In this document: positions 2,697-23,183 of the stretch, in pieces
How positions within the stretch are numbered: the stretch's first letter is position 1
Layout: each line of letters opens with the position of its first letter
IMG/VR virus record: IMGVR_UViG_3300034071_000380
Coordinates: 1 to 64,000 of that record
Source of the DNA: a virus
DNA length: 64,000 nucleotides
Strand: one strand, 5' to 3'
Program-made: the position numbers and the translations under genes
The notes under the pieces: model-generated
Told to the model about the DNA's origin: nothing
What the model saw: the letters and a program-made list of their open reading frames with translations, nothing else
The model's database searches: none

Positions 2697-2817
2697 CTTT
2701 TTCCATAAGTTGAGTAAGCTCTGCCCGTAGTATTGCAATCTGAGTCTCATAGTTTGCTACAATCTCCCCAATGCGCTGCTGAAGGGCGGTAATAATTAAT
2801 TCTGCCTTTGTTGACAT
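2662..2817 (-). CDS. 51-aa coiled-coil protein (MSTKAELIITALQQRIGEIVANYETQIAILRAELTQL...)
   Basis: Read manually, below the ORF-track cutoff; fills the gap after the tail fibre gene; heptad pattern. Confidence 0.65.
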   Translation of the reverse strand: MSTKAELIITALQQRIGEIVANYETQIAILRAELTQLMEKDVQEETTEDSK

Positions 2818-2850
2818 TATTCTTCCAATCTATTAGTACTAAGGATAACA

Positions 2851-5334
2851 TTATCCTTCTAGGGCGTCAAGTCTTGTTTTCATAGATTTTATGCTTGCAT
2901 CTTGCTCTTGAATAAGCTGTAATAAAAATACAGGCAATGTTTCGTAAGCAAAGTAGTCTGGGACTCCCGTTGAATCATACTGAATTAATTCATCAAGCCC
3001 TAAATCTTGGGCTTCTTCAGCAATAAAACCGTATTGCTGAACACCTGTTTCATCATTTATGTATTTAAATTTTTTAACTGGCAAATTTAAAAGACCTTCT
3101 GAATTTATAGAGTAATTATCAATTTGTTCTTTGCGTCTACGAGTTGATGAAACGTAGCCATACGTTCCAGTTGTGCTAACACGCATTGCACGAGTAGTGC
3201 CTCCCATATCATTATTATAGGTTTGAGCAACACGAACATTTCCGCTTGATGATAAAAACTCAAACAATGAACCAGTTACTCCAAATGTAACTGATCCAGT
3301 TGCCAAAAGCCCACCTGTAATTTCTGTAGGCGCCTGTAAATAAACCCTGCTTGCAATTACATCAATAATTCCAGTTGATATGTTAGACTCCAAATATATA
3401 ACTTTATCTGAAGAAAGTTTGCCCCCAGATATTGTTAAAGTATTTCCAGCATATCCACCAGGAGATCCAGTAGATGTTAGTGAACCAGTAAATGTTCCTG
3501 TTGCAGCAGACAAAGAACCAGCAAATGATCCAGATGTTGCTGTAATTGCTCCAGATATACTTGCACCAGTTGCTATTAATTGGCCAGCAGCAGTTACTTC
3601 AAATCCACCTGAATTTAAAATTCTTCCTGTATCAAAAATTGTAAGGTTAGTTGTGGTAATTGTTCCATTGCTATTTAATGTTAAATTACCTGAAGACAAT
3701 GTTGAAGTTCCTATTGTCCAGCCAGCGATTGTGCTTGAAGATAGGCCAAGCGTAAATCTACCAGATGCGGTAGATCCACCATTTGCGCTATGATATATTC
3801 CAAGTGTGGGACTAATTATAACTGCGCTTCCAGATGAAGATCCTGCCCTAATTATTCCACTACTATCTAATTTAAATGTACCGCCAGAATTTTGTATTCC
3901 ATCTGCAGCAATTGTAATGCCACCAATTGTTCCACCCTCTGCTGTTATGGTTCCGCCAATACTTGCTCCAGTTGCAGTTAGTATTCCTCCAGTGTTAACA
4001 GAAAATTTGCCAGAAGATGTTGATATTTCTGTTGCTGTTAAAGAACCAGTTATGGTTAATCCTCCGCCAAGCGGGGCTTGAAGGACTGCGGTTGATCCAT
4101 TATAAATATACAGCCCAGCCAATATAGATGATGCTGGCACAGCAGCGCTTGATATTTCTATTCTAGAAGACCCTGCTGTTCCAGCACGAATAAATGATGT
4201 TGCGCTCAATGTTCCAGATTCAAGGTTATTTACAGATATTGTTCCAGCTGATAGCTTTGTTACATCAATTTCTCCAGCAAGAATCTTTCCTGCTGTAATT
4301 GCATTTGTTGCAATTTTATCTGCGATAATAGCGCCAGAAACAATTTTATCTGCAGTAATTGCATTAGCAATAATTTTTTGAGAAGTGACTGCATCATTTG
4401 CAATCTTAGTTTCTGTAATTGCAGAGGTTGCGATTTTAGCTTCAGTAACTGCATCGTTTACTAGTTTTGCATTTGAAATAATTGCATCTGCTAAATCTGT
4501 TCCTATTGCAGATCTTGCTCCAGATGATTGACTAGTAACGTTTGCACTAATTGCTGACTCTGCACCATTTTTATTTACAGAACTTGCATGGATATATACT
4601 GGAACATTATATCTAACATAAGTTCCATCTACTGGAACTACAATTTTATTTGAAATCTTGTTAGCGGTCATTTGACCTACTTTTATATATGTTCCTCCAG
4701 TTGCTGTTGCTGATGTTCCAGCATATATATTAATAGCTTCAAATCCAGTCCAGGCCGAACCATACGTTCCAGCCCAAGCTACTTCTATGCCTCCAAGTAT
4801 TCTTTCTGATGTAAATCCAGTCGGCGCCACGGGGGTTTGAATTTCTTCAACAATTTCTGTAACTGTGATTGTTCTTGCTGTACTAAATAAAGATTCTGTT
4901 CCGTCTACTGATATTGTTTTTAATTGAACAATGTATATTCCAGGAACTGCTGTAAATGTTTGTGTTCCAGCCTGCTTAAAAAATCCAGCAGGCTTTGTTC
5001 CGTCGCCAAATGTAGTTCCAGAAATATGTATGTTTACTCTATCAAAATTAGATGCGGCAGCAGATAAAGCATTATTCCCGCCCCATGTTACTTTGATAAA
5101 TCCTGCTCCGCCTACAACATCGCCAGACCCTAAACTAGGCTCTGAAGGTATTGTTGCAGATTGAGTAACAAATGTTTTTACTGAACTCCATGCGCCTAAT
5201 GTTCCGTTTTTATTTTTCCATCTGAATTGAAGTGGGTACGCAGTTCCTAAATCTAAATCTGTAATGCTAACTAGAAAATAATTACCATCATCTTTAGACT
5301 CTGATACATCTTTCAGTAGATCTTGATATGACAT
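2851..5334 (-). CDS. tail fibre/spike with C-terminal intramolecular chaperone (peptidase S74-like)
   Basis: FN3-like N-terminus, AITxxKI repeats, Gly/Thr-rich shaft, SSTRRRKEQI...YGFIAEE chaperone motif and terminal coiled coil. Confidence 0.8.
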   Translation of the reverse strand: MSYQDLLKDVSESKDDGNYFLVSITDLDLGTAYPLQFRWKNKNGTLGAWSSVKTFVTQSATIPSEPSLGSGDVVGGAGFIKVTWGGNNALSAAASNFDRVNIHISGTTFGDGTKPAGFFKQAGTQTFTAVPGIYIVQLKTISVDGTESLFSTARTITVTEIVEEIQTPVAPTGFTSERILGGIEVAWAGTYGSAWTGFEAINIYAGTSATATGGTYIKVGQMTANKISNKIVVPVDGTYVRYNVPVYIHASSVNKNGAESAISANVTSQSSGARSAIGTDLADAIISNAKLVNDAVTEAKIATSAITETKIANDAVTSQKIIANAITADKIVSGAIIADKIATNAITAGKILAGEIDVTKLSAGTISVNNLESGTLSATSFIRAGTAGSSRIEISSAAVPASSILAGLYIYNGSTAVLQAPLGGGLTITGSLTATEISTSSGKFSVNTGGILTATGASIGGTITAEGGTIGGITIAADGIQNSGGTFKLDSSGIIRAGSSSGSAVIISPTLGIYHSANGGSTASGRFTLGLSSSTIAGWTIGTSTLSSGNLTLNSNGTITTTNLTIFDTGRILNSGGFEVTAAGQLIATGASISGAITATSGSFAGSLSAATGTFTGSLTSTGSPGGYAGNTLTISGGKLSSDKVIYLESNISTGIIDVIASRVYLQAPTEITGGLLATGSVTFGVTGSLFEFLSSSGNVRVAQTYNNDMGGTTRAMRVSTTGTYGYVSSTRRRKEQIDNYSINSEGLLNLPVKKFKYINDETGVQQYGFIAEEAQDLGLDELIQYDSTGVPDYFAYETLPVFLLQLIQEQDASIKSMKTRLDALEG

Positions 5335-10884: not shown

Positions 10885-11355
10885 TTATACCTCTTCCATT
10901 GAAATAGATATATTCCAGTGTGCTTGAATTCCTCGTTTAACTAAATTAAATGTACAGTCTGTAAATGATACAGTATGTGACTCATATCCAGAAGATACTT
11001 GGCTTGCACCGTTTTTTGCATAGTTAATTCTAATATCAAATGTGCCTTTTCCTAGTGTGCTTTCATAAAATGTTCTTAGGTCTTCCGCTCCCCAATATCC
11101 GTCCGCTGTTTCAGTTCTATATGCAGGAACCAAGTCCCATGAAATACTAAAAGATTTTTTATCAGCAATAAAAAATTTTCTTAATGTTCCGTTTGACATT
11201 CTTTGTGTTTGTTGAATTCTATTATGGCTTACTGTAAATGGACCACGATTATGATCCGTAACGGTATTCCATTTTGTTGTTCCATCTCCGCCATTTGCGG
11301 AGGCATCTACGCCGTAGACTTGAAGGAGGGCTCCCCTAGGTAAAGTAATAGCCAT
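10885..11355 (-). CDS. distal tail (Dit-like) protein
   Basis: Immediately downstream of tape measure; RMSNGTLR...FSISW...ISMEEV pattern. Confidence 0.6.
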   Translation of the reverse strand: MAITLPRGALLQVYGVDASANGGDGTTKWNTVTDHNRGPFTVSHNRIQQTQRMSNGTLRKFFIADKKSFSISWDLVPAYRTETADGYWGAEDLRTFYESTLGKGTFDIRINYAKNGASQVSSGYESHTVSFTDCTFNLVKRGIQAHWNISISMEEV

Positions 11356-14300
11356 TAGTTTCTTCTTCCCACTCCACTCATTGCTGCTCTCATTACATTC
11401 TTTTGATCAAGCATGTCTACAACCATTGAAGCAATCATTCTTTCATCTTGTCCTGGTTGTGCATTAACAACAAATCCACCAACATCATAGTGATGAACTG
11501 CTCCACCCTTATTATATCCTGGAATTTGATTTTTGCCAAGAGACACTGTGTTTGTAGGAATGTTATATTTAGGTCCAGCTAGTCCGCCCATTGCATAAGA
11601 TGGAACGCTCATATTAGAATAATTAGATGGATTTGCATATCCTCCACTTGCAAATTTAGGAATTTGTATTTTTCCATTGTTAATAAATCCCCCGCCTGCT
11701 GCTTCTTCCACATTTTTTAGCTGTTCTTTAATATTAGAAATTATTGACATAAAGTCTTTTTCAGATAAAGCTCCTCTAGCGTATAGACTTACAGCTGATT
11801 TTTGAGCTGCTAAAAGATCTTTTTCATCTGCATAAGTTTTTCCACTTGTATATTTGCCAAAACGTGTAAACATTAAAAGTGCACCTAAAGCTTTTTGCGT
11901 ATCACTTATTCCAACACCCACAGCTCCCGTTTGAGCTCTTTGTGCATTTAAAATATATTCAAATGGATTATATCCTGAGCCATGAGCTAACATGTCTATG
12001 TCGCTAGCATTATGTCCGCCATCAAATCTGACTCCAAGATTTGCAGCCATTTCTGCTATCTCTTCTTGATTTAAAGAACTAAATTCTCCCCTAACGGCAT
12101 ATCTGTATTTTTCATCTATTCCAATTTGTTTCTTTGCTTTATCTATTGCTAGTATTTGTAAAATTCTTGAAACGCTTACATGCTCATCAGACTCATAATT
12201 GCTTCGTGCTGGCATATAAAATTCTTCTGAGCTACTGCCTCTCATGGTGTCTTCTGTACGTGCTATAGGCCTTAAATTACCATTTTCGTTAACTGCTTGT
12301 AATATTTGAGCAAGCTCTGCTTGAGAATATTTTTCTTTATCTAAATAAAATACTTCCTTTGCTAAAAGATCTTCTGCAATTATTGGAGGTGCTTCTCCAG
12401 GTTTATATAAATTAAGTTCTTTTAATTTTGCTATATAAGCAGATTCTTCAAGGGGAAAGCCTGAGCTTAGCTCTCCTTCTTTTTTACTGTAATGAAAAGG
12501 CTTTCCAAATCTTTGCAAGAAAAAGGTATCTACTGAATGAAACTGTTCTGGCTTTCCATTATATTTCATTAAATTAGAAAGTGTGCTTACTATAAACGGT
12601 TTATTTGGCTTCCATTCACCCTGCATATGTGACTGAACTGCGTCATAAATTCCAAAGTGTCTCGATGTTCTAGCTGCGGCTAATTCTTCGGGGGTGCCGA
12701 CAGTTCCTTCAGGAAGTCCTTTTGGACCAAAAAATCTAGAAAGTATGTGGGTTGCTGCATCTTTTTCAAAAAGATCTCCACTGCCATCTGTTGATGGGAA
12801 ATCGTCATTAAATATTCTTATCATAGGAATATCTCTTGGTGTTAAAGGAGTGTAAGAAGGTTCCCAACCTCTTGCCTTTAATTCTGCAATTTCAGCTTTA
12901 GTTAAAGGCTTTTCTCCACGTATACCATGCAAGCCGCCTCTTGGGCCACCTTGTCGTGCAATATTGGCAGCTACCGCTTCTTGTTGTAGTCTGACAGTTT
13001 CTATATATTCCTGAACCATTTTTGTAAGTAGTGGTGAAATTGCTTTTGTTTTAGTTTTAATAGCAACAGCATCTTTTGTATTGCCACGCATTGCAGAAAT
13101 TAATTGTGCAAGCCCTGCTGGATCTAGTGACTCTGAAAGCTCTGGCCTTCTAAGGCCAAAAAGATGTGGGGATGCTAAATCTTGTGGATCAACATTTTTT
13201 AAATTTATGCTACCTGATGCTAGCATATTCATTAAAAATTCTTTTACATCTTTATCGCCCCATTGGTATCCTGAATTCATTTTATCTAATAAGCTTTTAG
13301 CTTTTTTGTGGTTTGGATCTTTTTTCAAAATATAAGATAGGATTCCTTCTGGTGTTGTAGGAATAATATCAGTTACTTGATGGCTTGCTAATAATGAGCT
13401 TAAATTTTCAGTAAGACCTTGAAAAACAACTGCGTCATTTCCAAAAGCGTTTCCTGAATACACTGGTACATTTTTTCCTTCATGAATTACAAATGGCGGG
13501 TAAACATTATTTGGCTTAAAATCATCTGCAGACATTTTTATTTGTGGCTTTTGAATCATTGAAGATATTTTGTTTTCAGCAAATGGTCTTGCTGCGCCGA
13601 TCATTGCTGCAGTTATAGCATTAGATGTAAACTGTGGAACTGCTGATGTTGCATACGGTATAGAACCCTTTGGAAGAAGAGAGCCTAATCCAGGAAGTCC
13701 TTTTGATAATCCATATCCTTCAGCTAGTCCTCTTATCGAAGCGTTTCCAGCTGCCGCTGGCAATAAGAATGAACCAAAATCTAATCCAACTTGTGCAGCA
13801 ATTTCTGGAATTACAGATGTAACTCCTTGTTGTTTTATTTTTTCTTGTTGTGATTTTAATCCTTCTATATTTGTAGAAGCAATTGGGTTTGTACCAGTAA
13901 ACGCTGCTTGTACTCTGTCTAAAGATAATATTGCTGGAAATAAAAAGTTGTCATAAATCTTTTGAGCAACAGATTTTGGAGCTTTATAATTACTTGCCAT
14001 GTGTCCAGCAGGCAAACGTCTGCGACCTGATCTTCTACCTGATGAAGATTCCATTTTTTGTTTTAGGGCAGCTGATACAGAGCCCATTGATGACATTCCC
14101 ATTGCATGTGGGGCACTTGAATGAGTGTGTCCTACTGGACCACCAGCATGGAACATAAGTCGGCTTGGTCCATAATCAGACAAAGGATTTATGACTCTTC
14201 CGCCGCCTGCAAACATCAATGGACCTAGTCCGTAGGCACCGCTTCCAATGCCTCCCATAGAGGCTCCAGAGCCTGCCAGACGCATAGGATCTCTATCTAC

Positions 14301-17300
14301 ACCCATTCCTGGGCTTGTAAATGGTTTGCGTGGCTGCTCAGCCATCTGATGCATGTAATCTGAGTGTTGTGGAACATTTCCACTAAATTTAAGTCCTGGA
14401 ATTTCTGTTCCGCCCCATATATCCATACCTGGACTACGTGGCCCAATAAACCTAGAAAGCTCTCCCCAATATTGTCCAAAAGGATTTCCTATAGGCTTTC
14501 CAGATCTTGAATAAGGAACACCTGGTTTCTTTTGTCTTGGTACAGTTAAAGGTCCATTTATCCAATTTCCAGAATCAGTCAATGAGTTTACAACTTTTCC
14601 ACCTTGTGCAAACTTCTTTATATTAACCTTTGTGCCTGCAAAAATTCTTGATCCACCCATATATTTTGGATCATTTAGCTGTGGATTCATTTCCATTAAT
14701 TGCTTGACGCTAATTCCATACTTTGCAGCAATTGCAGATAATGTATCTCCTCTGCCTACTGTGTATCTATCATTTTCATAATCTGACTTAGCATCATCTG
14801 CGCTGTAATATTCTGGTGTGCCATATCCATATTTAATAGTATCTACTGGCTTATATGAAGGTCTTCCAAATCCTACAATTGGAGCATTCTTCATATTGTA
14901 TTGTCTTACTTTTGCAAGTACTCCGCCGCCGCTTCTTTGACTTCCAGAACCAGATGTATTTCCTTCTATAGTTGAAACTGCATTCTTGCTTAAAACTTTT
15001 CTTACTAGTCCTACGTGAGAGATTCTATTGACGCCGTCTCCTGGGAAATCCATAAAGGCTAGATCTCCACGAAGTGGACTCATTGTTGTCCACTTGCCGC
15101 TCTTCCTAAATGATTGAGCTCCACCAGGAGTCCATATCATGCTTGCTAAATCTACTCCAGATTTTTTTGCCGCCCAATTTATAAATGCACCACACCATGC
15201 AATAAATCTAGTTTTTAAATCATAAGCTTTTTGTGCAAAGCTTCCAAATATTGTGTCGTTGCCTCTTCCTTCTTTATAACCCAACATAGACTCTGCTGTT
15301 TTAATCATTGAGTCTGCTGTGCCCATTTTAGTTACCTTGCCGCCATTAGCAAATCTGCCAGCGTTTAGGTTATCAAGAAAATCTGGACCAAGGTTTCTGC
15401 TTGCCTTCTCAACTGAAGAGGCTTTAATTACATATTCACCATCTGAAAGATATGCTGGGATAGAGTCAGATGTTGAAGTGCCTGGACCCATTACGTCCCC
15501 GCCTGGAGCGTAGTGTTTTACAGCCCCACCTTGTGCAAAAGTAAAGTTACTTCCTGGGTTGTCGTATCCTGGGTTATACCATCTTCCAACAAGTTTATTA
15601 TTTTTTAAAACATCGCCATTCTTTTTATATAAATATCCACCCTGATTTAAATCTTTAATTGGCCCCAACATTTCTAAACTTTGTCCGCCTCCATATGTTG
15701 GATGCACAAATGATTGATTTGATCCAGCAGGTCCACCTACTGGAACTGGCATAACACGAGCTTGCTCTCTTGTGTACTTAACTCCAGTTGAACGATTTTG
15801 AAATCCTCCAGTAGCGGGGTCAAAAGATAATCTAGCTCCTGATGTTGGCGTAGGAGTTCCAGACAGTATTTTCTTTAGTAATCCCAAAACTTCTGTATCT
15901 GATGTTTTAAGTTCTCCCTTTTCGTTGTAAATTGCTTTACCAAATGCTGACTTAGCTATTTCCTCTATGCCACTTGGATTTGGAACAAATCTGCTTCCTA
16001 CATAGCTACCGCCTCCACCAGATAGAGATCTTGCTATGTCTTTATATCCAGCTTTTTCTAAATCAGATATAAGCAGATTAAGTCTATCTTTCTCTGTTGG
16101 ACTTAATTCACCATCTGTTGCAGAAGTTGTTAGTGCAAGGAGCTCTGTGAGCAACGAGCTAAGATTTTCAACTTTTGCGTTTGCTGCATCAGCTGTCTTT
16201 TTTGCTGAATCTACTTTATTCTGAAGTCCATCAATTCTTGCATTAAGTGCATCAATTAATGATTGCTCTGCTGCAATATCTTGTTCAGCTTTTAAATCAA
16301 TTGCTCTCTTTGCTAAAGTAACTTGCTGAGATCCAACTAACTGTTGAATTGCAATTTGTGCTTGTGCTGCACCAGACATATCTCCAGCAGCTAATTTGTC
16401 TTGATACTCAAGCTGCTTTGCTTTAATTCTAAGATTAATATCTTCATCTGCATTTTCTTCATCTAAAGCTTTCTTTCTTGCGTCCGCTTCTTCTTTTATT
16501 TTTTGAATCTTTTTATTATGTAATTCAATTTCTTTACGAAGAGCCTTAGCTGAAAGTTCTGCGTTTTGAATAATTTGTTCTGCATTTGTTTTTGAAACCT
16601 TTGCCATATCTTTTACAATTTGTGAATATGGACCAGATTTTAATGCTTCTCTTTGTTTTTCAATTATTATAGAAAGAGCTTCAGCGGCTGCTGGCCCCAT
16701 ATTTACAAAATCTAAAGCTATTCCAGATGTAGAAAGTCTAACTTTTGCCATAATGCTTGCTAAAGTATCTGTTGTGTTTAGAAGCCTATTCATCTCCGCA
16801 TTTTGCTTTACTATAGCATTGACACCCTCAATTCCAATTGCTACATTTCCACTAGATGTTGCCTTTATCTGCTTTAATATTTCCTGATAAGATTCTGAAG
16901 AAGTTATAAGTTTGCCATTTTTATCTTTTGTATTCTCAATTGAATCTGCTAAATTATTATAAGCATTTAATGCGGTATCCAAGGACTTGCTTAGCTGGTC
17001 TGTATTTCCATTTTTAATTACATTATTAAATGTTTCCAGGGTAGACTTTGCAGCAGAAGCTTTATCTGTAATAGTTCCAAAACCTTTATCTCCTAATACT
17101 GACAAAGCCTGGGCTGATTTATTTGAAATTGAAATTAATGCATATATTAATTCATTTGCATTTTCTACAGACATCCCGCTTGATACAAACATGGCTTTTA
17201 GTTGAGTTGCTTTCTGTGCCAACTCTTGCTCAGATGCTACATTTAGCATTTTAAGTTCTGTTGGTAACTGTTCCTTAGCTTGCTTTTTTAGTTCATCAAA

Positions 17301-20300
17301 TTCTTTTACAGTTATATCTATTCCTTGACCAGGAGCTTTTGTTGTAGTATATTTAAATGCTGCCGCCGCTGCATTTCTTAATTCAATTTCCTTTTTGTTT
17401 TTTTCTATAGATGAAGTTAAAGTTTTATAGTTAAGATTTAGCTTTTTTACAGTTTCTTCTTCTAGGCCAAAAGCGGAGTCAATTATTCTTCGTCTCTCAT
17501 TAATTTTGTCATTAATGGTTTTTATTGCAACTCCTACACCAAGTAAGACAGCTATTAATTTGACTGGCCCAGGCATTTTTGTAAAAAGTTGAAATGCTTT
17601 TGTTAATAAAGTTGTTTGAGTTCTTGCTGTTCCTGCAGCCTTAGACATAAGGAACATGTCTGTTGCCATTTGACCAACCATGTATCCGCCCATTTGCCCA
17701 ATACCGCCAAACATTCTGCCGCCAACTTGACTTAATCCAAATCCAGCAGCCTGCCCTAGAAGCATTGACTTCATGTATCCAGATGCTCCAATTCTTGGCT
17801 GAACAATTCTTTGTTCGTTTTCTTCCGCAAAGTATTGAACTCCAGGAACTACCCCGCCCTTTGAGAATCCAGGAATAATTCCACCAGACATTTTTGGAAC
17901 AAATATTTCTGGGCCATTCTCTCCAACCAAATATGGTCTACCACCAGTAACTGGTCCTCCGCCTGCACGAGCACCATCAACAACTGTCTCTAATTGTATC
18001 TTGCCATCTCCTGCATTAACAATTCTAAACTTACCACCAAAGATTGATTCTTGTTCTGACCTTGAATTATGTCCAGCTACCTTTTGTCCAAATGGCGCTG
18101 AGAATCTTGCATCTGGGAAAATATCTGATGCTGGAACAACATTTCTATTTCTTACAATTGCTTCTAACAGAATAGCTTTTTGGTCTCCTGGAGCAGAATG
18201 GCCAGGGGCAAACAAACTTGCTACATCTCTATTTTGGCTCCACGATGAGCGGCGCATTATAAATTCTCTTCCAATTAAAGGAGTATAGTCTCCAGTTAAT
18301 TTTGCCTGAGATATTAAATCCAATATATCTGCTGGCAACGGATTTGATTTATTATTCTTTAAAAATATTCCTCTGTATAGTCTTCCAGTATATTTTCTTG
18401 ATAAAGTTTTTACTGCTTCTGTAGCGCCTGGAGTTTGCAAAATGCCATAGTTTCCAGCCATGTATTGACGCAATATGTATCTGCCACGATCCTCTAAATT
18501 ACCAATTGGGAACTGAGGAAGCACTGCTTGTCTTGCAAATCTGTCGTCACGATATAAAATTTCACGAGTCCACTCAGGCTCATTTTGCATATTTTTTGGA
18601 ACCATTGTTGTTCCAATTTGTAATGGCCCATGAAGTGGATCTTGGTTTCCTAGTGTATATTGATATCCTGGTTTTCTGAACTGCATTTGTGGCTTCCACT
18701 TTGCAGTTAATTTATCAAGCTTTGACTTAGATAAAGACTTTACTATTCTTCCAACCATGTTGGTTCCAAAGTTTTGTATGATCCCGCCCATATTTTTTCT
18801 TTGTATTCTAGCTACTTTATTTTCTTTTAGGGCAACATAATCTCGTTCGTATAATGCGGTTGGATTATATTGAGTTAAAACTCTTTCTATTTCTGGAATT
18901 ACATCTTTTGTAAAAGTAAACTCTGCGCCAAGCTCTGGTCTATCTCCTATAGTTGGAAGTTGATCTACTGAGACACCACGTCTTTGTGCTTCGTTTTCAA
19001 ATCTTGTTCTTATTGCTGAATCTATTGCTTCTTCAGCTTCATCCCATTGAGAAAGAGGAATTTTTGCAGCTCTTAATTGATTTCTATATTTGTTTACTCC
19101 TGCTACCTTAACAAGGTCTCTTCTTAAAAAGTCGGATGGTCTAAGGTTATTTTGGTTTGCTGATAAATTAGTTGCCGCTGTATAATCTACAATATAGTTG
19201 CTTACTAATACTTTTCCATCTCCTAGTTTTTTACTTACTGTAAGATGCGTACCATGTCTTGGCTCTGCATATGGAAGTGCATCTAGTCCATTTTCTACAA
19301 ACCTTGAATTTAATTCGCTAACATTTTTTGACTGTAATGTTCTTGATGTTTGAGAATGAAGTGCTGGATCTTTTTTAGACCTAGTTAATTTATCTGTAAA
19401 GTTTTTAGCTACATCTAAATATTTTTGTTTTAATACAGGATCTGGAATATCACCAATTTGAGAAATAAATCCTCTAGCATCTGCCCCTCTTGCTTTTATG
19501 CCATGAACAGTTTCTACTACATCTCTATTTCTAGTTGTAGAAAGACCTTTAACAATTCTATTAGGCATCATTCTGCCAAAGAATTGCATACCGTCTATCA
19601 TTCCGCCTTTATTTCTATTTTGAATTGGAACTATTACCGCTTTACCTTTATTGTATAGATGAAGTCCTTCTGGGTCACGAGCTGTTTGTTCTTTAGTTAC
19701 AACAAATTCTCCTGGAGTAAGCATTGCTGGAACGGTATCTGTATTTCCCTGACCAGGTACAAATCTACCTTGTTCGGTAGTAAATACTTGTCCACCCATA
19801 TTTAATCTTCTTGGTCTAGTTGTTTCTGTTGAATATGGTGCGCCAAATGTTTTAACTCTCAGTGCTTCAGCAATTCTTGTAATAAGACCTCTGTTTCTTG
19901 GTCTTGTAAGTTCTTTCATATTTGATTTTCCAGTTACTGGATCAAATGCTGGTTGATCTACAATTGGCAACTGTGTTAAATTAATTGTTCTTCCTTGTGC
20001 AGTAGCAACTCCTGTTGCTGCCTGCCCCATCATTGCTTCAATCTGTTGGTTTAATGCAATAACTCTTGCTCTTGCTTGTTCAACAGTTATCTTAGATGCT
20101 TGAAGATCTGCAACTATTTGTGCTGATTCTGATGCGGCAAGTGATGTTAATCTTGACATTTCTGGAAGAAGCGCTTGATATGAATCTGATAATGATGTAG
20201 TTATTAGTCCAGTTGCTGCAACTTCTCTCTTTAATAATGCTATTTCTTCTTTTGATTGCATTGCTAATGCACCAGTCATTGCATGCCACTTAGCAGCTTC

Positions 20301-22511
20301 TTCTGCAACAATTCCTGTTGAAACTCCACGTACCGAGCTGACTCCCTCTATCTTTGGCAGGTCGCCAGACATATACATTTGTGGGTTATTGCTTATTTTT
20401 TGATTAACTAATGGTGCTCCTGGAACAATGCCAAATATTGTTTGTGCAGCTTTTTGTTCTGGTGTCATCTGGCTTACTGGATTTGGATGAGAAAAAGATC
20501 TAGTATCTCTATCGCTTACAAGTGGGTGGCTTGGAACAACTTCTCTTGCACCAGCAATAATTGTTTGCCCAGCAATTGTTGATATTGTTGGTTGTGATGA
20601 AATTGTAGCTGATCCTGCTTTTGTTTGTAATTGAGTTAATTGATCATTTACATAGCTAAGCGCTTCTCCAAGTGCCATAGCTGCTTTAGCATCATTATAA
20701 AATGTTTGCTCTACTAAGTTTCCAGCTTTTTGTGCTGCTAAAATTTCTGGTGTTAATAAACGCCATCCTTCGCCGCCTTTGAAAAATGCTCTAAGATGAG
20801 CGGCGCCCTTAACAACATATCCTAAGAAGTTTGCAAGCACACCAGTTAACATAATAAGTGGTCCAGCCAGTGCTGTGAATCCAGCAAATAGACTCATTAA
20901 AGTTTTTACTGGTCCAGGTAGTTTATTTGCAAAATTTACAATCTTGTCAAGAACATTTATTAAAAATGTTCCAACATTTAAGAACTGCTCTCCTACTCCA
21001 GCCAAGTCTGCTTTTAGTTGCTCTAATGCTCTACGGAATCTACCAGAAGCAGATTCAGTAATTTGTGCTAATTCTCGTCCAGCTACACTTGCTAAGTCAC
21101 CTGCGCTTGCATTCATTAAATCTAAAACTTGTAAAGTCTGGCTACCCTGTCTACCTAGGTTATCAAAAAGGGCTGATAGTCTAGCAAATTGGAACTTACC
21201 AAAAAGTTGTTCAATTGCTTTTGTTTTGCTAAGAGGATCAAGTCTGTCTAAAGCTTTTTGCAAATCTAAAATAGTGGCAGTTAGGTTTCCAGCGTTACTT
21301 GTAACGATTTGTCCCAAATCAATGCCAAGACCCATGAACATTTCTTTTGCAACTTTAGTAGGATTGATAAGTGAAGCTAGGGATGATTTAATTGCATTTG
21401 CGCCTTCTGATGCATTAATTCCTCCTTCTTTCATTGCAGTTAAATATAAAGCAAGATCTTCTATATCTCCACCCAAAGATTTAATTACTGGTCCCGCCTT
21501 TGGAATAGCTTCTACTAAATCATTAAGAGTTGTTGAAGTTTGGTTTTCAACAGCGTTGAGGAAGTTAATAGACTCTGCTAACTCTTGAGTATTTTGATTA
21601 AAAGCTGTTTGAATTGCAAGAGTGGCCTTCATTGCTTCTTGTCTATCTACTTCACCAAGAACTGAAAGTCTAGTAGTTTCTCTTACTGAGTTAAGGAGCT
21701 CTGCTCCTTCTTTTCCAGTTGCAGCTATATCTGCAGATAAGGCTATAGTTTCTTTATAAGATGCGCCATACTGTGCTGCTAATTCTTTTGCTGTTGCAGC
21801 AACTTCTTTTCTTACTGTAGCTAGCTCTGCTGCAGAGCTTCCTGCTATTCCGCCATAAACTTTTGTTAAACGAACTAACTGCTCGTCTGCTTCTCTAAAT
21901 GCATCTGCTGCTGCTTTACCAAATGCTGCAATTGGAACTGTTAAACCAACTGTTAGCTGTCTACCTGCCCACTGTGTATTTTTACCCCAGTTAATTAATT
22001 GAACTCCGCCATCTTGAATAACCTTATTAAAGATTTGCATTTCTTGCTTAAGCAGAGCTGCTTTGTTTTTAGTTTCGTCTAAACCTCTTGGTATATTAAC
22101 ATTGAATTGCATAAGCCCCTCGGCATTTCTACCGAGAGGCTGAATGATTGCATTCTGTAAAGCTACTTGCTGTCTAGCAAGATCTCTAATTAATCCGCCA
22201 GAAGTTCTACTGTGCTGTTGCCAGACACCGTAATACTCTCTTAACTTTAATCTACCCTGATCTAAATTTTTTCCAAATTTATCAACATCAGCTGTTAAAT
22301 TAACAAAGTGTGTAGAGAATTGTCCAGTACTTCTTAAAGTACTTGCAAAGCCCTGCTGTATCTTTGTTGCATTTAAAGCTAACGCTTTATCTGTGTTAGT
22401 TAAAGTTTGCTTTAATTGAGATAACTGAAGATTAACCTTATTAACATTTGAAATAAGATCTGAAAAGTCTGCACTAGCAACTATATTGGTGACTACATTT
22501 TCGCTAGCCAT
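11355..22511 (-). CDS. giant tape measure protein with embedded ADP-ribosyltransferase, CHAP and LysM domains
   Basis: Follows tail chaperones; N-terminal TP901-like tape-measure core; LYRG/SSWS/SEQE ART motifs; AWCGAF/HVGLV/IEGNT CHAP motifs; YTVGRGDTLSAIAAKYG LysM. Confidence 0.92.
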   Translation of the reverse strand: MASENVVTNIVASADFSDLISNVNKVNLQLSQLKQTLTNTDKALALNATKIQQGFASTLRSTGQFSTHFVNLTADVDKFGKNLDQGRLKLREYYGVWQQHSRTSGGLIRDLARQQVALQNAIIQPLGRNAEGLMQFNVNIPRGLDETKNKAALLKQEMQIFNKVIQDGGVQLINWGKNTQWAGRQLTVGLTVPIAAFGKAAADAFREADEQLVRLTKVYGGIAGSSAAELATVRKEVAATAKELAAQYGASYKETIALSADIAATGKEGAELLNSVRETTRLSVLGEVDRQEAMKATLAIQTAFNQNTQELAESINFLNAVENQTSTTLNDLVEAIPKAGPVIKSLGGDIEDLALYLTAMKEGGINASEGANAIKSSLASLINPTKVAKEMFMGLGIDLGQIVTSNAGNLTATILDLQKALDRLDPLSKTKAIEQLFGKFQFARLSALFDNLGRQGSQTLQVLDLMNASAGDLASVAGRELAQITESASGRFRRALEQLKADLAGVGEQFLNVGTFLINVLDKIVNFANKLPGPVKTLMSLFAGFTALAGPLIMLTGVLANFLGYVVKGAAHLRAFFKGGEGWRLLTPEILAAQKAGNLVEQTFYNDAKAAMALGEALSYVNDQLTQLQTKAGSATISSQPTISTIAGQTIIAGAREVVPSHPLVSDRDTRSFSHPNPVSQMTPEQKAAQTIFGIVPGAPLVNQKISNNPQMYMSGDLPKIEGVSSVRGVSTGIVAEEAAKWHAMTGALAMQSKEEIALLKREVAATGLITTSLSDSYQALLPEMSRLTSLAASESAQIVADLQASKITVEQARARVIALNQQIEAMMGQAATGVATAQGRTINLTQLPIVDQPAFDPVTGKSNMKELTRPRNRGLITRIAEALRVKTFGAPYSTETTRPRRLNMGGQVFTTEQGRFVPGQGNTDTVPAMLTPGEFVVTKEQTARDPEGLHLYNKGKAVIVPIQNRNKGGMIDGMQFFGRMMPNRIVKGLSTTRNRDVVETVHGIKARGADARGFISQIGDIPDPVLKQKYLDVAKNFTDKLTRSKKDPALHSQTSRTLQSKNVSELNSRFVENGLDALPYAEPRHGTHLTVSKKLGDGKVLVSNYIVDYTAATNLSANQNNLRPSDFLRRDLVKVAGVNKYRNQLRAAKIPLSQWDEAEEAIDSAIRTRFENEAQRRGVSVDQLPTIGDRPELGAEFTFTKDVIPEIERVLTQYNPTALYERDYVALKENKVARIQRKNMGGIIQNFGTNMVGRIVKSLSKSKLDKLTAKWKPQMQFRKPGYQYTLGNQDPLHGPLQIGTTMVPKNMQNEPEWTREILYRDDRFARQAVLPQFPIGNLEDRGRYILRQYMAGNYGILQTPGATEAVKTLSRKYTGRLYRGIFLKNNKSNPLPADILDLISQAKLTGDYTPLIGREFIMRRSSWSQNRDVASLFAPGHSAPGDQKAILLEAIVRNRNVVPASDIFPDARFSAPFGQKVAGHNSRSEQESIFGGKFRIVNAGDGKIQLETVVDGARAGGGPVTGGRPYLVGENGPEIFVPKMSGGIIPGFSKGGVVPGVQYFAEENEQRIVQPRIGASGYMKSMLLGQAAGFGLSQVGGRMFGGIGQMGGYMVGQMATDMFLMSKAAGTARTQTTLLTKAFQLFTKMPGPVKLIAVLLGVGVAIKTINDKINERRRIIDSAFGLEEETVKKLNLNYKTLTSSIEKNKKEIELRNAAAAAFKYTTTKAPGQGIDITVKEFDELKKQAKEQLPTELKMLNVASEQELAQKATQLKAMFVSSGMSVENANELIYALISISNKSAQALSVLGDKGFGTITDKASAAKSTLETFNNVIKNGNTDQLSKSLDTALNAYNNLADSIENTKDKNGKLITSSESYQEILKQIKATSSGNVAIGIEGVNAIVKQNAEMNRLLNTTDTLASIMAKVRLSTSGIALDFVNMGPAAAEALSIIIEKQREALKSGPYSQIVKDMAKVSKTNAEQIIQNAELSAKALRKEIELHNKKIQKIKEEADARKKALDEENADEDINLRIKAKQLEYQDKLAAGDMSGAAQAQIAIQQLVGSQQVTLAKRAIDLKAEQDIAAEQSLIDALNARIDGLQNKVDSAKKTADAANAKVENLSSLLTELLALTTSATDGELSPTEKDRLNLLISDLEKAGYKDIARSLSGGGGSYVGSRFVPNPSGIEEIAKSAFGKAIYNEKGELKTSDTEVLGLLKKILSGTPTPTSGARLSFDPATGGFQNRSTGVKYTREQARVMPVPVGGPAGSNQSFVHPTYGGGQSLEMLGPIKDLNQGGYLYKKNGDVLKNNKLVGRWYNPGYDNPGSNFTFAQGGAVKHYAPGGDVMGPGTSTSDSIPAYLSDGEYVIKASSVEKASRNLGPDFLDNLNAGRFANGGKVTKMGTADSMIKTAESMLGYKEGRGNDTIFGSFAQKAYDLKTRFIAWCGAFINWAAKKSGVDLASMIWTPGGAQSFRKSGKWTTMSPLRGDLAFMDFPGDGVNRISHVGLVRKVLSKNAVSTIEGNTSGSGSQRSGGGVLAKVRQYNMKNAPIVGFGRPSYKPVDTIKYGYGTPEYYSADDAKSDYENDRYTVGRGDTLSAIAAKYGISVKQLMEMNPQLNDPKYMGGSRIFAGTKVNIKKFAQGGKVVNSLTDSGNWINGPLTVPRQKKPGVPYSRSGKPIGNPFGQYWGELSRFIGPRSPGMDIWGGTEIPGLKFSGNVPQHSDYMHQMAEQPRKPFTSPGMGVDRDPMRLAGSGASMGGIGSGAYGLGPLMFAGGGRVINPLSDYGPSRLMFHAGGPVGHTHSSAPHAMGMSSMGSVSAALKQKMESSSGRRSGRRRLPAGHMASNYKAPKSVAQKIYDNFLFPAILSLDRVQAAFTGTNPIASTNIEGLKSQQEKIKQQGVTSVIPEIAAQVGLDFGSFLLPAAAGNASIRGLAEGYGLSKGLPGLGSLLPKGSIPYATSAVPQFTSNAITAAMIGAARPFAENKISSMIQKPQIKMSADDFKPNNVYPPFVIHEGKNVPVYSGNAFGNDAVVFQGLTENLSSLLASHQVTDIIPTTPEGILSYILKKDPNHKKAKSLLDKMNSGYQWGDKDVKEFLMNMLASGSINLKNVDPQDLASPHLFGLRRPELSESLDPAGLAQLISAMRGNTKDAVAIKTKTKAISPLLTKMVQEYIETVRLQQEAVAANIARQGGPRGGLHGIRGEKPLTKAEIAELKARGWEPSYTPLTPRDIPMIRIFNDDFPSTDGSGDLFEKDAATHILSRFFGPKGLPEGTVGTPEELAAARTSRHFGIYDAVQSHMQGEWKPNKPFIVSTLSNLMKYNGKPEQFHSVDTFFLQRFGKPFHYSKKEGELSSGFPLEESAYIAKLKELNLYKPGEAPPIIAEDLLAKEVFYLDKEKYSQAELAQILQAVNENGNLRPIARTEDTMRGSSSEEFYMPARSNYESDEHVSVSRILQILAIDKAKKQIGIDEKYRYAVRGEFSSLNQEEIAEMAANLGVRFDGGHNASDIDMLAHGSGYNPFEYILNAQRAQTGAVGVGISDTQKALGALLMFTRFGKYTSGKTYADEKDLLAAQKSAVSLYARGALSEKDFMSIISNIKEQLKNVEEAAGGGFINNGKIQIPKFASGGYANPSNYSNMSVPSYAMGGLAGPKYNIPTNTVSLGKNQIPGYNKGGAVHHYDVGGFVVNAQPGQDERMIASMVVDMLDQKNVMRAAMSGVGRRN

Positions 22512-22521
22512 TTTTTAGATG

Positions 22522-22893
22522 TTACCCCTTTTCATATCCTAATCCCGCTCCGATTCCAAATCCTGCCTGGGCTGCAAGTGGTCCTTGTAGTGAAACAACA
22601 TCGTTTGCACCTGCATTTATTCCCAAGGCTCTTCTTTGTATATCTTCAAAGGTTGGACCTTCTTGTTCTTCTTCATCTTGACCTAAATCAATTCCTTGAA
22701 TAGATGCTAAGAATCTTCTTTTCTCTGATTCAGTTTTTTGCATTGACTTTAAAGTCTGAATGAGTTCTGGCATTGATAAGTTATCTTCTAGCTCGTCGTA
22801 ATTCTTCCAATGACCTAAAAGAAAAACTTCTCCCAATAAAGCGGCAAGATCTAGTTCTGACCAGCCAGAACCGCTGCCGCTAGAAGGTTTGGG
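22522..22893 (-). CDS. tail assembly chaperone, frameshifted C-terminal extension (gpGT-like)
   Basis: The -1 frame is open from the slippery site CCCAAAC into the 22522..22836 ORF. Confidence 0.8.
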   Translation of the reverse strand, partial: PKPSSGSGSGWSELDLAALLGEVFLLGHWKNYDELEDNLSMPELIQTLKSMQKTESEKRRFLASIQGIDLGQDEEEQEGPTFEDIQRRALGINAGANDVVSLQGPLAAQAGFGIGAGLGYEKG

Positions 22894-23183
22894 TCATCCA
22901 TCTTAATTCCTCCGCATACTTCAAGAATGCGGTTGATTGTTGGAACATCCAATGCGTCTTCTAGTGCATCTCTATCTTTTACTAGATCTGGCAATTGCTT
23001 TTCTAATGCTACTGCACATGCATCAATGAGAATTGTAAGCGTCTCATCTTCTGATGTAACTTCTGCTGTCTTCTGAATTGCTGCCATGAACTTTCTAAGT
23101 TCTTTAATTGTCAAAGGCTTTAACTTTACCTTAGCCCCGTTTTGTAGTTCAATTTCTTCTACGTCGTAGATTGTAGTTGCCAA
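22851..23183 (-). CDS. tail assembly chaperone (gpG-like)
   Basis: Between major tail and tape measure genes; AGGAGG before a TTG start. Confidence 0.85.
   Translation of the reverse strand: MATTIYDVEEIELQNGAKVKLKPLTIKELRKFMAAIQKTAEVTSEDETLTILIDACAVALEKQLPDLVKDRDALEDALDVPTINRILEVCGGIKMDDPNLLAAAVLAGQN
22887..22893 (-). other. programmed -1 ribosomal frameshift slippery site C CCA AAC
   Basis: XXXYYYZ heptamer in the correct phase (GAC CCA AAC). Confidence 0.85.

Follow-up and report, generated by a model that had tools for sequence, protein, structure and literature searches.

Exchangeable modules between conserved Gly-Gly joints in a 3,718-residue phage tape measure protein

We analysed the first 64,000 nucleotides (nt) of the IMG/VR virus record IMGVR_UViG_3300034071_000380, a stretch referred to below as the window, and focused on its tape measure protein (TMP) of 3,718 amino acids (aa; P0001), in which unrelated modules are separated by copies of a short Gly-Gly (GG) peptide. 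Comparison with relatives shows that these joints are conserved as peptides and mark where modules are exchanged, and that one type of joint is, by sequence alignment, homologous to the mapped cleavage site of the T5 tape measure protein pb2. The modules (numbered as in Table 1) include an ADP-ribosyltransferase (ART)-like module, a CHAP peptidase with a LysM domain and a block of 811 aa termed M10. Our reading of the whole, to which we give a probability of roughly 60%, is that a fixed backbone carries modules that are strung on GG joints and are processed and delivered as cargo.

Profile matches assign the protein to the TP901-type tape measures (PF10145, 1.5e-27 and 97.3 bits with a cut-off of 33.2 in a Pfam profile search; TIGR01760, 2.1e-28 and 99.4 bits with a cut-off of 28.8), and PHROG TMP families match it down to 4e-123. 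Its open reading frame (ORF) is uninterrupted and can be taken as real because homologues of nearly equal length exist (P0002, 3,720 aa, 92% identity across 100% of the length). A preliminary description of the DNA had read this protein as a modular cargo polyprotein and listed 15 GG motifs, all of which are present, each within ~10 nt of the position given there (aa 906, 969, 1242, 1518, 1552, 2328, 2337, 2390, 2637, 2770, 2790, 3607, 3623, 3642 and 3669). With a further copy at aa 3678 (YDVGGFV), P0001 holds 16 copies of the consensus [FYR]-[AN]-x-G-G-x-[VI]. The pattern [FY]xxGGx[VIA] is found 11 times against 0.46 +/- 0.67 expected from 2,000 composition-preserving shuffles, in which the maximum was 4, and [ANS]xGGx[VI] is found 13 times against 0.87 expected. 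The full motif is ~24-fold above shuffles of the same composition, and GG dipeptides in total are only modestly enriched (48 vs 34 expected). Moreover, an unsupervised tally of the 2,348 distinct GG contexts past aa 880 in 120 family proteins, in which no motif was presupposed, revealed enrichment of F, Y and R at position -3 (3.7-, 3.6- and 2.5-fold), A or N at -2, and V and I two residues past GG (5.3- and 3.0-fold).

Three copies (aa 969, 1242 and 1552) carry the extension GG..Q[FNY]F[GA]..RIV, and the cassette D[TS][VI]PAxL[TS]xGE[FY]V occurs twice (aa 925, nt 19739; aa 2349, nt 15467), both as previously noted. GG is not always a junction: a looser regular expression also picks up sites within domains, such as RSGGGVL in the CHAP region (aa 2529) and two sites in the core (aa 105 and 347). 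Across the family, motif number grows with protein length (r = 0.72). The Gly plus Pro fraction reaches 0.2-0.3 in the junction regions, and the predicted local distance difference test (pLDDT) score is below 50 for the motif-bearing ends of both AlphaFold2 (AF2) models, those of the ART module and of M10; in these models the ends appear to be linkers between folded units. The Gly codons and their flanking codons vary among the 16 copies, which share no nucleotide repeat, and the motif is therefore conserved as a peptide and not as a DNA repeat. The idea that the joints promote recombination by DNA homology thus found no support. In agreement with the varied codons, a self-BLAST of the 3,718-aa protein found no internal repeats, the copies being too short and divergent for it. 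Internal translation starts at Met residues beside GG were also considered and rejected, because visual inspection revealed nothing resembling a Shine-Dalgarno sequence ahead of the ATG codons at aa 905 and 1241.

A whole-length search (E <= 0.001) retrieved 1,289 proteins of 2,044-6,507 aa; in most of them the similarity is confined to the first ~900 aa (55-80% identity), beyond which the sequences diverge. When 119 homologues were compared with P0001, 45% of the 420 internal ends of BLAST high-scoring segment pairs fell within 5 aa of the 16 motifs, against 4.6% expected; since such ends favour conserved islands by construction, this statistic shows conserved joints flanking variable modules and not a mechanism. 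Hot spots of homology ends lie at aa 909, 954-993, 1240, 1514, 2391-2395 (64 ends, in cassette 3), 2771-2818 and 3596-3639; in many comparisons homology stops at aa 908-909 in cassette 1, and in the C-terminal tail it restarts at FASGG (aa 3620) or YAMGG (aa 3639).

Because of this bias of BLAST ends, we added a comparison at the DNA level. With the locus L004 (IMGVR_UViG_3300032308_001420), the window shares 97.4% identity across 9.8 kb as far as aa 2786; ~2.5 kb of unrelated sequence follow, and identity then resumes at 95.9% from aa 3620 through the downstream genes. The left junction, at window position 14157 (aa 2786), lies directly before FHAGGPV in the window and ANGGLA in L004, and homology restarts exactly at FASGGYA in the one and FARGGYV in the other. 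CHAP-LysM-M4 (from aa 2328/2336 to 2767/2770) forms an island of 85-87% DNA identity in other loci, where the core is ~70% identical, and M10 (aa 2785-3692) forms a 92.5% island in L009, where the ART is 74% DNA-identical and core homology stops at aa 908; for the two islands together, the backbone cores are ~70-76% identical. Furthermore, M10 is 92% identical in L009-L011/L015, loci in which the ART is 69.5% identical, and is replaced by unrelated sequence in P0004-P0006. All these ends of DNA homology have a motif within 0-5 aa. When a single relative is compared module by module, the identities disagree with one another, as in P0007 (core 78%, M15 21%, ART 69%, M1 25%, CHAP 87%, M10 92%, tail 50%). 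The expectation that the motifs border unrelated modules, and that gain, loss and swaps of modules in relatives occur there, was therefore borne out by the homologues.

Cutting the 120 family proteins at the motif yielded 701 segments with a minimum length of 70 aa, and these group into 85 clusters. The family backbone runs M0 - cassette - (slot A) - ART (M2) or M9 - cassette - M1 - cassette - (CHAP-LysM-M4) - (slot B) - tail. M0 is 60-99% identical in at least 118 family proteins, and M1 is present in 118 of the 120 and highly divergent (25-98% identity). The slot A module M15 is exchanged in relatives for the unrelated M5, M6, M13, M16, M19+M20, M38 and others. Single modules are found in many neighbour contexts (9 for M10, 18 for M4 and 8 for M11, which also occurs in tandem). 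P0245, a protein of 1,027 aa consisting of core, cassette 1 and tail, was considered as a minimal complete form and rejected: its core is 99% identical to that of L042/L051, where the TMP has 2,160 aa, and this protein from a single contig is either a recent deletion of all internal modules at a joint or a misassembly and was not used as evidence.

The joints are often part of larger cassettes. The type 1 cassette, FAxGG ... D/E-x-h-P-A-x-h-x-x-GE[FY]V ... FAxGG, is found at aa 898-975 and 2320-2400. The FAxGG and DxxPAxLxxGE motifs had been ascribed to the C-terminal part of classical tape measures, and lambda gpH confirms this: it reads FATGG...PAGIVHRGEFV...YATGGYV, and its residues 733-790 align with cassettes 1 and 3. 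In the PDB, the type 1 cassette matches residues 1016-1054 of JBD30 gp46 (E 4e-5) and two copies in Douge gp16 (961-1011 and 1408-1461, E 2e-9). Processing of lambda gpH takes place in the Gly-rich region that directly precedes its cassette and frees a ~14 kDa fragment, and the exact cleavage site and the protease have so far not been identified (PMC12617516). The PF09718 match in gpH lies just upstream of the cassette, and a cut at F733 would by computation yield a piece of 12.5-12.7 kDa.

The type 2 cassette, R-A-x-GG ... Y-x-V-GE-x-G-P-E-x-x-x-P (aa 1515-1541), aligns with NSFVPR↓AEGGMMYPGVSYQMGEHGTEVVTP of T5 pb2, in which the arrow marks the cut after R1127 that was mapped by mass spectrometry (PMC10038345). 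R1127↓AEGG...GEHGTEVVTP in T5 thus matches R1515↓AGGG...GENGPEIFVP in P0001, with the T5 cut three residues before GG. R1515 and the GG residues do not vary in an alignment of 40 sequences that extends down to 38% identity, and R-[AE]-x-GG upstream of GExGPE, seen in ~70 of 103 family instances, is the commonest form at this site. In T5, the C-terminal pb2 piece is kept in the tail on the hub, leaves first and is thought to digest the wall (PMC10038345). TMPs are cut in both lambda and T5, of which T5 alone has a mapped site (PMC10038345, PMC12617516). Cassette 2 also has matches to PHROG TMP C-termini and a weak match to gp18 in PDB entry 9occ.

Among the modules, M2 was assigned by structure. 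Its AF2 model (mean pLDDT 77.5, core >85) gave Foldseek top matches that are all R-S-E ARTs (Vis, Certhrax, C3bot, HopU1 and CDTa; E 6e-5, probability 1.0), with TM-scores of only 0.3-0.45. The catalytic Arg, S-x-S and E-x-E motifs are all present, the Ser in RRSSWS. An alignment of 40 sequences with identities as low as 38% shows no variation at R1380, S1423 and E1486/E1488, which are R138, S181 and E244/E246 in module numbering. Sequence searches with the module gave no Pfam match at E <= 10 and no PDB match at E <= 1. M2 therefore appears to be a divergent R-S-E ART that is recognisable by fold and motifs only, and the ART assignment made in the preliminary description holds. Likewise, the CHAP-LysM module proposed there was recovered by profiles (PF05257, 1.2e-5; PF01476, 5.2e-12; PHROG endolysin families, 5e-20). 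At E <= 10, Pfam covers none of the junction cassettes, M15, M4 or the ART module.

For M10, the AF2 model has a mean pLDDT of 73.8, with low confidence in the first ~210 aa and values around 90 for aa ~3007-3604 (~600 aa). The best Foldseek match had an E-value of 0.5, VIA-align matched a terminal helical hairpin only (Z about 7) and the ESM Atlas search gave scores of 0.76 or less only; as the model exceeds 400 aa, these missing fold matches are no evidence of a new fold. A subdomain at aa 3279-3410 (window 12283-12675) is shared by 58 representative proteins with lengths of 159-3,900 aa. Many of these are the size of a TMP, and in such proteins the subdomain often lies close to the C-terminus; it has near-invariant R, H, D and Y residues with the consensus RxSxHFT...D...SH...DTWW. 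It has no Pfam family, and Pfam searches of ten proteins that share it gave nothing useful. This subdomain may be an enzyme.

Table 1. Features of the tape measure gene in the window. Residues are converted to window positions by nt = 22511-3*(aa-1); the arrow marks the position that aligns with the T5 cut.
Feature	Residues	Window position	Strand	Basis
Complete tape measure ORF (P0001)	3,718 aa	11355..22511	-	ORF list; PF10145, TIGR01760
M0, conserved tape-measure core	1-903	19803..22511	-	PhageMin_Tail domain 240-438
Cassette 1, lambda gpH-type: LNMGGQV ... DTVPAMLTPGEFV ... RNKGGMI	904-968	19608..19802	-	gpH alignment
M15, slot A, variable	969-1241	18789..19607	-	replaced in relatives
M2, R-S-E type ADP-ribosyltransferase-like module	1242-1515	17967..18788	-	fold and invariant residues
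Cassette 2, T5 pb2-type: R↓AGGGPV ... YLVGENGPEIFVP ... FSKGGVV	1516-1570	17802..17966	-	T5 pb2 alignment
M1, second helical core	1571-2324	15540..17801	-	MPGPVK and transmembrane-like segment 1645-1668 (hydropathy)
Cassette 3: FAQGGAV, YAPGGDV, DSIPAYLSDGEYV, FANGGKV	2325-2393	15333..15539	-	aligns with lambda gpH 733-790
CHAP peptidase and LysM	~2394-2560 and ~2561-2634	14610..15332	-	Pfam, PHROG
M4, Gly/Pro-rich, starts with FAQGGKV	2635-2766	14214..14609	-	cluster M4
Junction 4: FAGGGRV ... FHAGGPV	2767-2793	14133..14213	-	left breakpoint of L004 replacement
M10, swappable block (811 aa)	2794-3604	11700..14132	-	replaced in P0004-P0006
C-terminal tail	3605-3718	11358..11699	-	five GG motifs (3607, 3623, 3642, 3669, 3678) and conserved end

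Some features of the backbone deserve separate mention. Hydropathy indicates a transmembrane-like segment at aa 537-571 of M0, and the second core repeats the arrangement of 'L/M-PGPVK + hydrophobic helix' of the first (aa 530-571 and 1645-1668). M1 looks like a second ruler or channel unit, and the repeated arrangement points to an origin of the backbone in which two tape-measure units were fused in tandem. Among relatives, the second core is 25-35% identical as compared to 68-78% for the first. As in T5, JBD30 and Douge, the extreme C-terminus of the tail would be expected in the hub. The G+C content is 0.414 at window positions 14001-16000 and 0.35-0.36 on both flanks, a rise that coincides with the Gly/Pro-rich region of cassette 3, CHAP-LysM and M4; this block may have spread recently, or the increase may merely reflect GGN and CCN codons.

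The window is part of a 78.7-kb record with an estimated CheckV completeness of 66%. The TMP gene lies between tail-chaperone-like and minor tail genes, in the same order as in Yaboi. On its 5' side are ORFs of 110 and 104 aa that match chaperone-like PHROGs (phrog_344), as well as an immunoglobulin-domain tail protein, and on its 3' side are minor tail proteins (phrog_10359, phrog_9983). The head module, with portal, S78 prohead protease and major capsid protein, is located further upstream. The two small ORFs directly 5' of the TMP gene (22522-22836 and 22851-23183, both on the minus strand; phrog_10504/phrog_344 and phrog_10474) occupy the slot of the tail assembly chaperones (22522-23183), whose Yaboi counterpart is annotated with a programmed frameshift. 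Two ORFs on the opposite strand inside the TMP gene (13570-13956, 128 aa, and 20875-21588, 237 aa, both plus) are most likely spurious by-products of a long ORF of biased composition. An 827-aa tail-fibre-like protein (2851-5334, minus strand) has at its C-terminal end a Peptidase_S74 intramolecular chaperone domain (E 1.6e-5) and is therefore a self-cleaving fibre unconnected to TMP processing. The closest cultured relatives of the TMP core are Streptomyces phages of the Stanwilliamsviridae (131 kb), with a core identity of 34% for Yaboi, and a megablast of the TMP gene against cultured phages gave zero matches. The phage, a siphovirus that has not been cultured, has a genome of some 115-120 kb and is a distant relative of these Streptomyces phages. 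Some fragments in the protein collection bear the names of 'Actinobacteria' or 'Micrococcales' metagenome-assembled genomes, and the host is probably actinobacterial.

We propose the following model for P0001. The fixed backbone consists of the two helical cores with membrane segments (aa 1-903 and 1571-2324) and the conserved C-terminal tail, and between them are carried the 273-aa block, the R-S-E ADP-ribosyltransferase, CHAP-LysM, the Gly/Pro-rich block and the 811-aa block. Every module is joined to the next by [F/Y/R]-[A/N]-x-G-G-x-[V/I], a peptide that often belongs to the larger pre-C-terminal cassette of lambda gpH, T5 pb2, JBD30 gp46 and Douge gp16. The joints could serve as flexible, exposed linkers that are cut during tail maturation, at least at R↓A-x-GG in the T5 register, that is on the C-terminal side of the third residue ahead of GG. 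The pieces would remain in the tail lumen and at infection exit before the DNA, whereupon CHAP-LysM would open the wall, the hydrophobic cores would form a channel, and the ART and other modules would act on the host. If a joint is needed at each module flank, in-frame exchanges at joints would therefore be the ones that survive selection, and such selection would thus create a mosaic that lacks a DNA-level recombination signal. Processing at one or more joints, considered by itself, seems to us a possibility that falls somewhat short of an even chance. A broader version, in which the peptide is a general processing signal of siphovirus TMPs including lambda gpH and is here multiplied so that at least six pieces arise inside the tail, the ADP-ribosyltransferase and other enzymes are injected free before the DNA and phages swap cargo one cassette at a time, strikes us as rather doubtful.

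Several points weigh against this model. Cleavage in P0001 would be an extrapolation from T5, with one mapped site, and from lambda, with an unmapped one. Compared with viral polyproteins, candidate cleavage sites exist, and a scan of the TMP and the adjacent tail genes recognised a protease domain only in the CHAP module of the TMP itself and none in the tail genes, the sole protease otherwise being the prohead S78 enzyme; CHAP is absent from most family members, which keep the motifs all the same. Position -3 is occupied by an aromatic residue in most joints and by a basic one (Arg) in the T5-like joint, so that one protease specificity would not obviously fit all copies. The construction bias of the BLAST ends belongs to the same side of the account, as do the observations in JBD30 and Douge, which favour joints that are structural and stay uncut. 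Such joints would be hooks or strands that dock the TMP to the hub, the distal tail protein, the tube wall or chaperones, or that trimerise the chain, and the modules would remain covalently attached and be threaded out as one. In JBD30, the cassette region (residues 1022-1066) is predicted to form a hook of two helices and a beta-hairpin, and the authors proposed that this hook fixes the TMP to the baseplate (PMC11445458). Once the T5 hub has opened, the 43 residues that precede the cut are anchored in its crevice, and with them the new C-terminus of pb2* (PMC10038345). TMP structures resolve extreme C-termini only, which leaves room for docking of the cassettes. Moreover, tail length scales with full TMP length in Douge (tube of 269.6 nm, 1,699 aa) and JBD30 (180 nm, 1,158 aa) at ~0.155-0.16 nm per residue of the whole TMP; this suggests that embedded segments can be ruler and not folded cargo, and by the same ratio a tail of ~580 nm would be predicted for 3,718 aa. 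However, a single hub-docking element would be enough, yet P0001 has 16 copies and their number rises with that of the modules, the T5 bond beside the homologous GG is demonstrably cut, and the motif-bearing ends are of low confidence and unstructured in both models. On balance we judge joints that are never cut to be unlikely, and docking and cleavage may well be compatible roles, as the same T5 region is both cut and anchored.

Two further explanations would deny the joints any function. They might be neutral recombination scars or hotspots that were carried along when modules and the adjoining ends of other tape measures were acquired, and indeed imported modules carry their own variant at the same junction (ANGGLA in P0004, HAGGPV in P0001), and the cassettes resemble ordinary TMP C-terminal ends that serial end-to-end fusions could leave behind. 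We consider this very improbable: the consensus is kept in lambda, T5, JBD30, Douge, Yaboi and the P0001 family despite unrelated surroundings, R1515 and GG are invariant down to 38% identity, and codons vary between copies, hence no DNA homology drives exchange. Alternatively, the motif might be a by-product of Gly-rich low-complexity linkers with no sequence requirement, which would suit the Gly/Pro content of the junctions and the modest excess of GG dipeptides. This explanation, which does not account for the specific flanks at -3, -2 and two residues past GG or for the ~24-fold enrichment of the full motif, is already disfavoured by the shuffles and the unsupervised tally and is hardly credible. 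We thus prefer a fixed backbone with processed and delivered modules.

Wall hydrolases embedded in TMPs, C-terminal TMP processing, exchangeable effectors derived from TMPs (PMC13277306) and Gly-rich processing of tail-associated lysins (Tal; PMC11409707) are already known. Beyond these cases, P0001 and its family combine a multiplied junction peptide, modules on a new scale and in great combinatorial diversity, an ART within a TMP, and joints that are linked to the T5 and lambda processing regions; literature searches on an ART in a tape measure, on modular cargo tape measures and on polyvalent-protein tape measures found no description of this architecture. One peptide is common to the mapped site of T5, the Gly-rich cleavage region of lambda and, in more than 1,000 giant tape measures, the borders between modules, and it therefore provides a concrete, mutable candidate for a processing signal. 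It is probable that the host receives ready-made proteins through the tail, and the tail lumen could be a cargo bay at a scale undescribed for phages, with ~85 module types in 120 proteins, most of them without a family, in addition to a toxin-type ART. Should the modules indeed be delivered, they would amount to a large and so far unexploited collection of proteins for host takeover or anti-defence. Moreover, the relation of a 3,718-residue chain to tail length poses a structural question.

Among the known systems, T5 pb2, which is matured to pb2* and pb2C while the tail assembles, resembles P0001 in its hydrophobic, channel-forming TMP segments and its R↓A-x-GG element, but it has one site and one C-terminal piece of 92 aa, whereas P0001 has 16 motifs and ~1,900 aa of modules including the ART. 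Lambda gpH, which is converted to gpH* and gpHC, shares the cassette that aligns with cassettes 1 and 3 but has a single copy and no embedded enzyme. Yaboi (Stanwilliamsviridae) is among the closest cultured matches, with the core identity and gene order given above, and its TMP of 2,093 aa has a GG/GEF cassette followed by a transglycosylase, an M23 domain and another GG motif; Douge gp16 has two cassettes about 400 aa apart. These two TMPs carry one or two wall hydrolases, in contrast to up to ~10 modules from at least 85 clusters, mostly without a Pfam family, plus the ART in the P0001 family. TM4-type motifs are a further example of actinophage tape measures with embedded lysin domains. 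Polymorphic toxins and the phage 'polyvalent proteins' of the Aravind group combine a conserved delivery part with variable enzyme modules including ARTs and peptidases. The analogy with such toxins drawn in the preliminary description applies to P0001 in so far as an N-terminal core is conserved and modules vary, but not to the arrangement, since the variable parts are internal and the extreme C-terminus is conserved, so that the likeness is functional only; the gene after the TMP encodes a tail protein and not an immunity candidate, in a comparison that included no dedicated search for immunity genes. The lysin-bearing Tal of TP901-1/Tuc2009 is cut at the Gly-rich NGGGNSGGGD just before its catalytic domain, and Gly-to-Arg changes block the cut (PMC11409707); unlike P0001, it is a tail-associated lysin and not a TMP, and has another motif and a single site. 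Finally, the Sle1-type TMP-related effectors belong to contractile injection systems of actinobacteria and not to phages, their functional domain is C-terminal, and the abstract on them describes no architecture of GG joints; as in P0001, a TMP-derived platform carries exchangeable domains, and there it is packaged and delivered (PMC13277306).

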